Under the pieces are notes generated by a model. The model worked only from the letters and a program-made list of their open reading frames with translations, was not told the DNA's origin and searched no databases. From assembly GCF_046105845.1 (NCBI RefSeq), contig NZ_CP151004.1: DNA of 64,000 nt; one strand, given 5' to 3'. Position numbers and translations under genes: made by a program. Source of the stretch: Escherichia coli (GTDB lineage: Bacteria > Pseudomonadota > Gammaproteobacteria > Enterobacterales > Enterobacteriaceae). Of the stretch, positions 10,560 to 35,531 are shown piece after piece; position 1 is the first letter of the stretch, and each line of letters starts with the position of its first letter.

Positions 10560-11819
<1,260 letters not shown>

Positions 11820-17946: not shown

Positions 17947-18065
17947 AATCTCGCGCTAACAACCTGGAATCGAGCCGTCATACTACGGCGCAACGCCCTA
18001 TAAAGTAAACGATGACCCTTCGGGAACTTCAGGGTAAAATGACTATCAAAATGTGAATTGTAGCT

Positions 18066-18099
18066 GACCTGGGACTTGTACCCGGGTCGGTATTTTTTT
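18066..18099 (+). promoter_or_regulatory. greA leader hairpin plus U-tract (attenuator; likely 3' end of the GraL leader RNA)
   Basis: gacctggg...cccgggtc inverted repeat followed by ggta ttttttt (18093-18099), about 95 nt upstream of the greA ATG. Confidence 0.5.
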
Positions 18100-18713: not shown

Positions 18714-18738
18714 AAAAAGGCCGCTATGCGGCCTTTTA
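18714..18738. terminator. Bidirectional intrinsic terminator between greA and yhbY
   Basis: aaaaaggccgctatgcggcctttta. Confidence 0.75.
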
Positions 18739-28617: not shown

Positions 28618-28694
<77 letters not shown>

Positions 28695-28842: not shown

Positions 28843-28900
28843 TTATCTGACTACAGAATAACTGGGCTTTAGGCCCTTTTTTTATGTCTTGGGGGTGGGC

Positions 28901-30892: not shown

Positions 30893-33565
30893 ATGACAGA
30901 TGTAACGATTAAAACGCTGGCCGCAGAGCGACAGACCTCCGTGGAACGCCTGGTACAGCAATTTGCTGATGCAGGTATCCGGAAGTCTGCTGACGACTCT
31001 GTGTCTGCACAAGAGAAACAGACTTTGATTGACCACCTGAATCAGAAAAATTCAGGCCCGGACAAATTGACGCTGCAACGTAAAACACGCAGCACCCTTA
31101 ACATTCCTGGTACCGGTGGAAAAAGCAAATCGGTACAAATCGAAGTCCGCAAGAAACGCACCTTTGTGAAACGCGATCCGCAAGAGGCTGAACGCCTTGC
31201 TGCGGAAGAGCAAGCGCAGCGTGAAGCGGAAGAGCAAGCCCGTCGTGAGGCAGAAGAATCGGCTAAACGCGAGGCGCAACAAAAAGCTGAACGTGAGGCC
31301 GCAGAACAAGCTAAGCGTGAAGCTGCTGAACAAGCGAAACGTGAAGCTGCGGAAAAAGACAAAGTGAGCAATCAACAAGACGATATGACTAAAAACGCCC
31401 AGGCTGAAAAAGCCCGCCGTGAGCAGGAAGCTGCAGAGCTCAAGCGTAAAGCCGAAGAAGAAGCGCGTCGTAAACTCGAAGAAGAAGCACGTCGCGTTGC
31501 TGAAGAAGCACGTCGTATGGCGGAAGAAAACAAATGGACTGATAACGCGGAACCGACTGAAGATTCCAGCGATTATCACGTCACTACTTCTCAACATGCT
31601 CGCCAGGCAGAAGACGAAAGCGATCGTGAAGTCGAAGGCGGCCGTGGCCGTGGTCGTAACGCGAAAGCTGCGCGTCCGAAGAAAGGCAACAAACACGCTG
31701 AATCAAAAGCTGATCGTGAAGAAGCACGCGCAGCAGTACGTGGCGGTAAGGGCGGAAAACGTAAAGGTTCTTCGCTGCAGCAAGGCTTCCAGAAGCCTGC
31801 TCAGGCCGTTAACCGTGACGTTGTGATCGGCGAAACCATCACCGTTGGCGAACTGGCGAACAAGATGGCGGTTAAAGGCTCTCAGGTCATCAAAGCGATG
31901 ATGAAACTGGGCGCAATGGCAACCATCAACCAGGTTATCGATCAGGAAACCGCACAGCTGGTTGCTGAAGAGATGGGCCACAAAGTTATCCTGCGTCGTG
32001 AAAACGAGCTGGAAGAAGCGGTAATGAGCGACCGTGACACGGGTGCAGCGGCTGAACCGCGCGCGCCGGTTGTGACCATCATGGGTCACGTTGACCACGG
32101 TAAAACCTCTCTACTGGACTACATTCGTTCAACGAAAGTGGCCTCTGGCGAAGCGGGCGGCATTACCCAGCACATTGGTGCATACCACGTTGAAACTGAA
32201 AACGGCATGATCACCTTCCTGGACACCCCGGGGCACGCCGCGTTTACTTCAATGCGTGCTCGTGGTGCGCAGGCAACGGACATCGTAGTCCTGGTTGTTG
32301 CTGCCGACGACGGCGTAATGCCGCAGACCATCGAAGCAATCCAGCACGCGAAAGCGGCGCAGGTTCCGGTGGTCGTTGCAGTGAACAAGATCGATAAACC
32401 AGAAGCCGATCCGGATCGCGTTAAGAACGAACTCTCCCAGTACGGCATCCTGCCGGAAGAGTGGGGCGGTGAAAGCCAGTTCGTACATGTGTCTGCGAAA
32501 GCGGGTACTGGTATCGATGAGCTGCTGGACGCTATCCTGCTGCAGGCGGAAGTTCTGGAACTGAAAGCGGTACGTAAAGGCATGGCGAGCGGTGCGGTTA
32601 TCGAATCCTTCCTCGATAAAGGTCGTGGTCCGGTTGCTACCGTTCTGGTACGTGAAGGTACTCTGCACAAGGGCGATATCGTTCTGTGTGGCTTCGAATA
32701 CGGTCGTGTTCGTGCGATGCGTAACGAACTGGGTCAGGAAGTGCTGGAAGCGGGTCCGTCCATTCCGGTGGAAATCCTCGGCCTGTCCGGCGTTCCGGCT
32801 GCGGGTGATGAAGTTACCGTTGTACGTGACGAGAAGAAAGCGCGTGAAGTTGCACTCTATCGTCAGGGTAAATTCCGCGAAGTTAAACTGGCGCGTCAGC
32901 AGAAATCTAAACTCGAGAACATGTTCGCCAACATGACCGAAGGCGAAGTTCACGAAGTGAATATCGTCCTGAAGGCAGACGTACAGGGTTCCGTGGAAGC
33001 TATCTCCGACTCCTTGCTGAAACTGTCTACTGACGAAGTTAAAGTGAAGATCATCGGTTCTGGCGTAGGTGGTATCACCGAAACCGACGCTACCCTGGCT
33101 GCGGCGTCCAACGCCATCCTGGTTGGCTTCAACGTACGTGCTGATGCCTCTGCACGTAAAGTAATTGAAGCGGAAAGCCTGGATCTGCGTTACTACTCCG
33201 TCATCTATAACCTGATCGACGAAGTGAAAGCGGCAATGAGCGGTATGCTGTCTCCGGAACTGAAACAACAGATTATCGGTCTGGCGGAAGTTCGTGACGT
33301 ATTCAAATCACCGAAATTTGGTGCCATCGCAGGTTGTATGGTTACCGAAGGTGTGGTTAAACGTCACAACCCGATCCGCGTTCTGCGCGACAACGTGGTT
33401 ATCTACGAAGGCGAGCTGGAGTCCCTGCGCCGCTTCAAAGATGACGTTAACGAAGTCCGTAACGGTATGGAATGTGGTATCGGCGTTAAGAACTACAACG
33501 ACGTCCGCACTGGTGATGTGATCGAAGTATTCGAAATCATCGAAATCCAACGTACCATCGCTTAA
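30893..33565 (+). CDS. infB: Translation initiation factor IF-2, 890 aa
   Basis: [31 protein letters not shown]; G domain GHVDHGKTS; in-frame internal GTG (31364) and ATG (31385) at codons 158 and 165. Confidence 0.97.
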
Positions 33566-33578
33566 GGTTGTCTGGGTT

Positions 33579-33656
33579 GTAGGCCGGATAAGGCTTTTAC
33601 GCCGCATCCGGCAGCCGTTGCCTGATGCGACGCTCGCGCGTCTTATCAGGCCTACA
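33579..33656. repeat. REP/BIME element (two inverted REP units) in the infB-rbfA spacer
   Basis: gtaggccggataaggcttttacgccgcatccggca and gcctgatgcgacgctcgcgcgtcttatcaggcctaca match the REP palindromic unit consensus. Confidence 0.8.
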
Positions 33657-33683
33657 CAGCCCTTTCCACCTGAGATTAATTTT

Positions 33684-33708
33684 AAAAGGGGCTATGGCCC
33701 CTTTTTTG
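33684..33708 (+). terminator. Hairpin plus T-run immediately upstream of the rbfA RBS (partial terminator/attenuator)
   Basis: aaaaggggctatggccccttttttg, followed by aggag RBS and rbfA ATG. Confidence 0.6.
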
Positions 33709-33723
33709 TCAGGAGAATTTATT

Positions 33724-34125
33724 ATGGCGAAAGAATTTGGTCGCCCGCAGCGCGTAGCGCAGGAAATGCAAAAAGAGATCGCTCTCATCCTGCAGCGTGA
33801 AATTAAAGATCCTCGTCTGGGCATGATGACCACCGTTTCCGGTGTCGAAATGTCTCGCGACCTGGCGTATGCCAAAGTATATGTAACGTTCCTCAACGAC
33901 AAAGATGAAGACGCGGTTAAAGCGGGCATCAAAGCGCTGCAGGAAGCTTCTGGTTTCATCCGCAGCCTGCTGGGGAAAGCGATGCGCCTGCGTATCGTGC
34001 CGGAACTGACCTTCTTCTACGACAACTCGCTGGTTGAAGGGATGCGCATGTCAAACCTGGTGACCAGCGTGGTCAAACATGACGAAGAACGTCGTGTTAA
34101 CCCGGACGACAGCAAGGAGGACTAA
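33724..34125 (+). CDS. rbfA: Ribosome-binding factor A, 133 aa
   Basis: ORF 33625..34125; conserved start [36 protein letters not shown] at ATG 33724. Confidence 0.93.
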
Positions 34126-35502: not shown

Positions 35503-35531
35503 GAAAAGGGGGCCTGAGTGGCCCCTTTTTT
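35503..35531 (+). terminator. Rho-independent terminator after rpsO
   Basis: aaaagggggcctgagtggccccttttttc. Confidence 0.8.

Follow-up and report, generated by a model that had tools for sequence, protein, structure and literature searches.

We found that the 158-nt spacer between infB and rbfA (33566-33723) in a 64,000-nt stretch of Escherichia coli DNA, called the window here and numbered from its first letter, carries a short terminator hairpin, known as t3, directly before the rbfA ribosome binding site, and upstream of it a pair of REP sequences that form one BIME unit. The explanation that best accounts for the evidence, to which we give a probability of roughly 85%, is that transcription leaving infB undergoes partial, Rho-independent termination at t3, and that the BIME is a dispersed repeat that this termination does not require. 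Such a terminator would set the output of RbfA, which acts in ribosome maturation, and of TruB, a tRNA pseudouridine synthase, relative to the output of IF2 and NusA, and published work has linked t3 to NusA feedback and, more contentiously, to cold-shock regulation. That t3 and a BIME precede rbfA is already known, and a specialist learns nothing new from their presence. The comparison among spacers is of modest use, as it separates an ancient terminator from changeable repeats that accumulate upstream of it, and it corrects earlier reasoning in which conservation before rbfA was ascribed to the BIME.

Locus and spacer layout

The infB reading frame (30893-33565) and the rbfA reading frame (33724-34125) bound the spacer, and translating 33724-34122 yields RbfA with 133 aa. 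When 5426 complete E. coli genomes were queried with 501 nt from around the spacer, infB and rbfA were found in 5422, and the matching E. coli records annotate the two flanks as IF-2 and RbfA, with the rbfA start at 33724. A longer reading frame (33625-34125, 166 aa) was considered as a gene and rejected, being the in-frame extension of rbfA to an ATG within the Z2-type REP unit, while the annotated gene starts at 33724. The sequence from the rbfA ribosome binding site to the start codon (GTCTGGAGAATTTATT-ATG) is nearly invariant among genera. A search of 33566-33723 for a sigma-70-like promoter found none. The spacer as a whole folds with a z-score of -4.53, and none of 200 shuffled sequences was equally stable. 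Rfam models also match nearby, at the metY-locus tRNA, the rimP leader, the S15 leader and SraG. The features of the spacer are collected in Table 1.

Table 1. Features of the infB-rbfA spacer and its borders, in window coordinates
Feature	Position	Strand	Evidence
infB stop codon TAA	33563..33565	+	end of ORF 30893-33565; annotated infB in matching records
REP unit 1, Y type, inverted relative to the operon	33579..33613	-	palindrome, outer arm, core GCCGGATGCGGCG, naRNA4 match
Linker GCCGT between the REP units	33614..33618	+	corresponds to the 'l' of the Y-l-Z2 REP325 unit (PMC4550694)
REP unit 2, Z2 type, direct	33619..33656	+	palindrome, outer arm, core GCCTGATGCGACG, naRNA4 match
3′ flank of the BIME (AGCCCUUUC region), candidate anti-terminator arm	33658..33666	+	RNA folds; speculative
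A/U-rich segment, predicted single-stranded	33667..33683	+	unpaired in MFE and centroid folds
Intrinsic terminator t3, hairpin and T6	33684..33707	+	repeat search, folds, strict scan, 79/79 spacers, name from the literature
rbfA ribosome binding site GGAG (33712-33715) and start codon ATG (33724-33726)	33712..33726	+	sequence, annotation

The terminator hairpin

Using an inverted-repeat search, we found a perfect hairpin, AAAAGGGGC-TATG-GCCCCTTTT, at 33684-33705 (9 bp, 100% complementary), which is followed by TTG. Its core stem joins GGGGC to GCCCC (33688-33692 and 33697-33701) around a 4-nt loop, TATG, and is lengthened by four A-U pairs (33684-33687 with 33702-33705). The T6 tract occupies 33702-33707, with T at seven of the eight positions past the core stem. 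The hairpin starts 119 nt past the infB stop on the + strand, which is the strand of infB and rbfA, and 16 nt lie between the last T of the T6 tract and the rbfA ATG, so that a preceding sequence-only reading of this spacer, which had placed a hairpin and T-run about 16 nt before the rbfA start, was accurate on this point. The predicted folding energy is -8.7 kcal/mol for the core stem and -13.1 kcal/mol with the A-U extension, and in the RNA ensemble the pairs form with a probability of about 1.0. With five G-C pairs and about -9 kcal/mol, a stem this short is what a leaky terminator would be expected to have, and not one that stops transcription completely. The element thus has the characteristics of an intrinsic terminator: a G/C stem-loop, an adjacent U tract, a place on the transcribed strand past a gene, and a structure that is kept in relatives.

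Hairpins of this kind are rare in the window. A strict scan, which required five G-C pairs, a loop of 3-8 nt and six or more T among the 8 positions that follow, returned four sites in 64 kb when 0.03 were expected from first-order Markov simulations. Besides t3, the sites include t1 of the rimP leader and the rpsO terminator, which are known terminators of the same region. The fourth site (GGCCG-CATAG-CGGCC-TTTTT) lies at 18719-18733 on the - strand, about 620 nt past a match to the greA leader (17977-18098). A consensus terminator scan left the t3 hairpin unreported, even though the stricter scan detected it. The miss is an artefact of the consensus scan, presumably because extending the stem through the A-T pairs uses up the T-run, and terminators with flanking A and T tracts may be missed by the consensus scan systematically.

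A single BIME unit upstream of the terminator

Two inverted REP units had also been claimed for this spacer from its letters, and a search for the REP consensus upholds the claim. Matches to the REP core pattern GCCKGATGCGRCG lie at 33600-33612 on the - strand and at 33620-33632 on the + strand (GCCGGATGCGGCG and GCCTGATGCGACG, respectively), and because the cores are on opposite strands, the two units are oppositely oriented. The inverted-repeat search found outer arms at 33578-33592 and 33642-33656 (15 nt, 93% complementary) and two internal palindromes, 33583-33594/33601-33612 and 33620-33633/33638-33651, which are the two REP hairpins; the ends of the units, of the GTAG/CTAC type, read TGTAGGCC and GGCCTACA. 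The Rfam model naRNA4 (RF02564) matches 33582-33652 over model positions 1-77, and its 78.7 bits exceed the gathering threshold of 59.5. The naRNA4 unit consists of 77 nt, in which a linker joins a Y palindrome to a Z2 palindrome (PMC4550694), and in practice any unit of the Y-l-Z2 form fits the model.

The 84-nt segment that contains the BIME occurs at 40 or more places per genome in 5425 of 5426 E. coli genomes. The REP pair at 33579-33656 is a genuine single Y-l-Z2 BIME unit and a dispersed repeat, and it is wholly extragenic, lying between the infB stop and the rbfA start. Tandem amplification of the BIME-2 kind was looked for at the spacer, where a single unit was found. A third match to the REP pattern, at 11449, was discarded as a chance occurrence (0.43 expected), since it has no palindrome and falls in apparent coding sequence. 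From reading the surrounding sequence, we take that gene to be murA.

Conservation of the hairpin and turnover of the repeats

We surveyed 80 rbfA loci, one genome per Enterobacteriaceae species, from which 79 infB-rbfA spacers between 62 and 289 nt long were extracted. The hairpin is present in every one of the 79, ending either 21-23 nt before the rbfA ATG or, where a short insert is found, 27-30 nt before it, and its retention throughout supports a function. The 79 spacers contain 55 unique hairpin sequences with 32 different loops, across which the five core pairs (one C-G and four G-C) are invariant; being invariant, these pairs provide no covariation evidence. Pairs 6 and 7 are mostly A-T, are replaced by G-C in 13 and 9 of the 55 versions, with both sides of the stem changing together, and include one G-T and zero mismatches. 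When hairpins are compared by taxon, G/C stems of 7 bp come with a degenerate T tract (GTTTTGTC, GATTTGTC) and stems of 5-6 bp come with T5-T6, a trade-off that looks like compensation holding t3 at an intermediate strength.

In many genera, an insert of 6-8 nt, resembling TCTTTAT, separates the T tract from the rbfA Shine-Dalgarno sequence and gives GTCTTTATTCTGGAG (loci L008, L010, L011, L013, L018, L036 and L049 are among those that bear it). The insert accounts for the shift of the hairpin from the nearer to the farther distance, and it resembles a short GTCT duplication.

The sequence upstream of the hairpin varies from genus to genus. The shortest spacers (62-69 nt; Cedecea, Buttiauxella, Atlantibacter and Shimwellia) have the hairpin and no REP at all, Klebsiella, Enterobacter, Leclercia and others have one REP of a different type (…GCCGGGTAAGCGAAGCGCCACCCGGCA), and some Salmonella, Citrobacter, Raoultella, Phytobacter and Intestinirhabdus have an additional element of about 127 nt. 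With repeats that are absent, replaced or variable, the stretch from the stop codon to the terminator is a permissive landing site for them. On this comparative evidence, the hairpin is the ancestral, conserved element of the spacer and the repeats upstream are its changeable part, the REP/BIME being a lineage-specific insert and not a conserved part of an attenuation device.

The same pattern is found between alleles of E. coli. The window and K-12 (locus L001) differ by 16.5% in the spacer and by 1.2-2.8% in infB, rbfA and truB, and the changes in the spacer are concentrated in and around the REPs. The window carries a minority haplotype: among about 5400 E. coli records, identity to it reaches 99% or more in 472. 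The spacer of W46 looks like a recombinant of window-like and K-12-like allele types. In E. albertii, the 5′ part of the spacer is window-like.

Spacers of the Escherichia type, which start with GGTTG…GGGTGTAGGCC, are also present in Pseudocitrobacter, Kluyvera georgiana and Citrobacter portucalensis (the loci compared are L022, L025, L031 and L055), whereas other Citrobacter and Kluyvera have a TCTTCGTC-type spacer. The Kluyvera georgiana and Citrobacter portucalensis spacers have a different second palindrome, presumably Z1-like. This patchy distribution of spacer types suggests exchange, or repeated re-invasion, of the spacer.

The element of about 127 nt is an imperfect palindrome found in Salmonella diarizonae, Raoultella, Intestinirhabdus, Phytobacter and Citrobacter braakii; it spans 983-1112 of locus L010 and is also present in the spacers of L016, L024, L042 and L054, with an extra internal insert in L016 and L024. 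In E. coli, it is a multi-copy sequence, with a median of 8 places per genome. We take it to resemble ERIC/IRU elements.

Published transcript evidence and a proposed mechanism

Transcripts of this operon are said to have been mapped with S1 nuclease by Sands and colleagues in 1988, and in 2001 Bylund and colleagues reportedly observed that deletions of the infB-rbfA terminator, as well as nusA mutations, raise rbfA expression. Brandi et al. (2019; PMC6511841) assign two operon terminators, t1 and t2, to positions before rimP and a third, t3, to a position 'upstream of rbfA'. Their northern blots contain an RNA of about 4.8 kb that lacks rbfA and 'likely' ends at t3, together with an RNA of about 6.7 kb that includes rbfA (PMC6511841). 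The mRNAs are ranked nusA > infB > rimP > rbfA, with infB about twofold above rbfA (PMC6511841), which is the comparison of infB and rbfA transcripts that the sequence-only reading had suggested. When NusA-dependent termination is reduced, transcript levels rise (PMC6511841). NusA and the Csp proteins have been proposed in the literature as trans-acting modulators; Csp proteins have been reported to cause antitermination within this operon, and a change of read-through during cold shock is disputed by Brandi et al. (PMC6511841). Naville and Gautheret (2010; PMC2965389) place the pre-rbfA element in their largest enterobacterial cluster, recognize a BIME in it and propose that it is an exapted attenuator.

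Together, the northern blots of t3 and the conservation of the hairpin in 79 of 79 spacers support the broader proposal made from the sequence, that read-through from infB must pass a terminator-like structure, implying attenuation or control of mRNA stability within the operon. Term-seq 3′ ends at the hairpin, which were expected on the same proposal, do not appear in the curated lists of Adams et al. (2021), where the interval 3311708-3318213 on the minus strand holds no 3′ end and one would be expected at about 3313195-3313200. The absent t3 end is weak evidence, since these lists also lack the attenuators described earlier in the rimP leader. In the SMRT-Cappable-seq tables, this long operon does not appear.

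On the favored explanation, RNA polymerase arriving from infB would transcribe the short G/C stem followed by the U6 tract, whereupon a fraction of the complexes would release at 33702-33708 to yield rimP-nusA-infB mRNAs, and the remaining complexes would read through to yield mRNAs that also carry rbfA and truB. Partial release would set rbfA and truB mRNA below infB mRNA, and termination factors could shift the ratio at this point. The BIME would have landed between the infB stop and t3 and would not be required for the terminator. It would be transcribed in either case, as the 3′ UTR of terminated RNAs and as an intercistronic segment of read-through RNAs, and its role, if any, would most likely be that of a secondary barrier to 3′ exonucleases or a weak pause site. 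Release of the polymerase at the t3 hairpin, as opposed to trimming of the RNA to it, stimulation of termination there by NusA and any stabilizing role of the REPs are inferences.

Alternative explanations

An unlikely alternative, though the one that survives best, is that the hairpin is mainly an element of RNA stability or processing. Cuts within 33667-33683, or 3′-to-5′ trimming to the hairpin or the REPs, would then leave the infB message with a stabilized 3′ end and give rbfA mRNA a protective hairpin at its 5′ end. The in vivo support for t3 ends rests on northern blots, and these do not discriminate between termination and processing or trimming (PMC6511841). REPs are also classical 3′ stabilizers, and operon-internal structures reshape E. 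coli operons through differential decay (PMC5927463); the infB/rbfA pair is not in the differential-decay table of that study, where the operon appears only among those analyzed. The distance from the hairpin to the rbfA Shine-Dalgarno sequence is fixed in all genera, as a processing role could explain, and the A/U-rich stretch at 33667-33683, predicted to be single-stranded, is a possible entry site for an endonuclease. A conserved U tract after the stem, however, is needed for termination and not for protection, and the trade-off between stem strength and U-tract quality is what one would expect of a terminator of intermediate strength. The rise in rbfA expression that terminator deletions reportedly caused (Bylund, 2001) also counts against processing.

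It is distinctly improbable that the BIME itself is the attenuator, with pausing at the REPs and partly Rho-dependent termination doing the work and the hairpin and T-run playing a secondary part. The idea has a precedent in the grouping of the pre-rbfA element with BIME-based candidate attenuators, for which attenuation linked to BIMEs was cited (Naville and Gautheret 2010, PMC2965389), and in a 2026 preprint in which REP325, an array of Y-Z2 units, holds back read-through into yjdN, partly by way of Rho. In the REP325 study, however, it is the full array of 12 hairpins that responds to bicyclomycin, whereas fragments of 2-4 hairpins, for example naRNA4, are without detectable response. The Rho-termination table of Adams et al. 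(2021) has no region at t3. The comparison among spacers argues in the same direction: several genera keep the hairpin without any REP in the spacer, and within E. coli no part of the spacer varies more than the REP region.

We regard as very unlikely a third possibility, that the REPs act on the translation of infB, the first stem stalling terminating ribosomes and lowering IF2. From the infB stop to the start of the first REP stem, at 33578-33579, the distance is 12-13 nt, and REPs less than 16 nt from a stop codon reportedly lower translation (Liang et al. 2015, cited through PMC12306157). In K-12, however, the outer REP stem is degenerate and stable pairing begins about 17 nt past the stop, the distance from stop to REP varies widely among genera, some of which have no REP, and infB is an abundant and essential gene that was not found in the RepRanger supplements.

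The remaining alternative turns t3 into a regulated attenuator and is highly improbable. A candidate anti-terminator arm, AGCCCUUU (33658-33666), is complementary to the 5′ arm of t3 (33685-33693) and would pair with it unless held by 33574-33580, a segment at the edge of the footprint of the ribosome terminating on infB, which would couple read-through into rbfA to infB translation. In the predicted folds, an alternative helix of about -9 kcal/mol forms when the 3′ arm is left out and engages all five G/C bases of the t3 5′ arm; it is predicted for the spacers of the window, K-12, O157, W46, E69, E. albertii and Pseudocitrobacter. In the full-length fold of the window allele, 33658-33666 pairs instead with the 5′ flank GGGUUGU (33574-33580), so that the flank helix is predicted to win in the window allele; in the K-12 allele, it is the anti-terminator that wins. 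'Possible anti-terminators' have also been drawn for the pre-rbfA element (Naville and Gautheret 2010, PMC2965389). Across the 79 spacers, however, the alternative helix is not conserved wherever the terminator is, being confined to the Escherichia type: no terminator-arm base is paired in spacers of the Klebsiella and Enterobacter type, and pairing is partial (three to four of the five bases) in the short spacers and in Salmonella arizonae. The helix is also weaker than the terminator (-9 versus -13 kcal/mol), closes a 20-nt loop and has no covariation, and the ribosome footprint reaches 33574-33580 only marginally. The sequence shows no evident sensor, be it a leader peptide, ligand, protein or tRNA. 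The most elaborate form of the idea, in which insertion of the BIME into Escherichia-type spacers would have created a three-way competition, with 33658-33666 pairing either with 33574-33580 or with the t3 5′ arm and the arrival of a ribosome at the infB stop freeing the anti-terminator, is the least credible of all the readings considered here. If it were true, read-through into rbfA-truB would be coupled to infB translation with a strength that differs between alleles.

Comparison with known systems

The element in the window corresponds to t3 of the E. coli metY-nusA-infB operon, with the same locus, the same genes and the same position directly upstream of the rbfA ribosome binding site. 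The K-12 hairpin is GGGGCT-AAC-AGCCCC and that of the window is GGGGC-TATG-GCCCC, and apart from the loop and the sixth pair they agree base for base. The outer stems of the window's REPs are more canonical than those of K-12, and the differences from the K-12 t3 locus are allelic only.

The REP pair has its counterpart in REP325/naRNA4 (yjdM-yjdN), which likewise joins Y and Z2 palindromes through a short linker and lies inside an operon between co-oriented genes. REP325 stabilizes the upstream gene and acts as a partial terminator (2026 preprint); the same preprint finds no measurable effect of REP325 on chromosome compaction and disputes HU binding and nucleoid roles. The two differ in that REP325 has six tandem units, whereas the infB-rbfA spacer has one unit that is followed by a separate intrinsic terminator.

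The BIME candidates that Naville and Gautheret (2010) list upstream of gatY, rbfA and cvpA include this very element. Their argument proceeded from conservation of the repeat's sequence and position, whereas in our survey of 79 spacers it is the hairpin that is conserved and not the repeat.

Within the same transcription unit, t1 and t2 of the rimP leader (Rfam RF01770) are likewise short G/C stems followed by U tracts. The similarity is close between t2 (GGGC-TTTAG-GCCC-T7, 28864-28883) and t3 (GGGGC-TATG-GCCCC-T6), and the rimP-leader attenuators are reported to be under NusA feedback (PMC6511841). Unlike t3, which is intergenic, t1 and t2 lie in a 5′ leader and have no REP. The motif GGGc…gCCC was considered as a signature specific to the rimP leader and rejected, since the rpsO terminator (35509-35525), which overlaps SraG on the opposite strand, shares the GGGGC/GCCCC stem of t3.

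The intercistronic REPs of malE-malF are also hairpins between genes of an operon and can protect the upstream message from 3′ exonucleases. The mal REPs have no intrinsic terminator after them, unlike the REPs between infB and rbfA.

The initiator tRNA at the metY locus of the window (28618-28694) differs by one base from K-12 metY, with G in place of A at position 47, which makes it a metZ-type (tRNA-fMet1) sequence at the metY locus. A metZ-type tRNA at metY has also been reported for MRE600 (PMC6511841).
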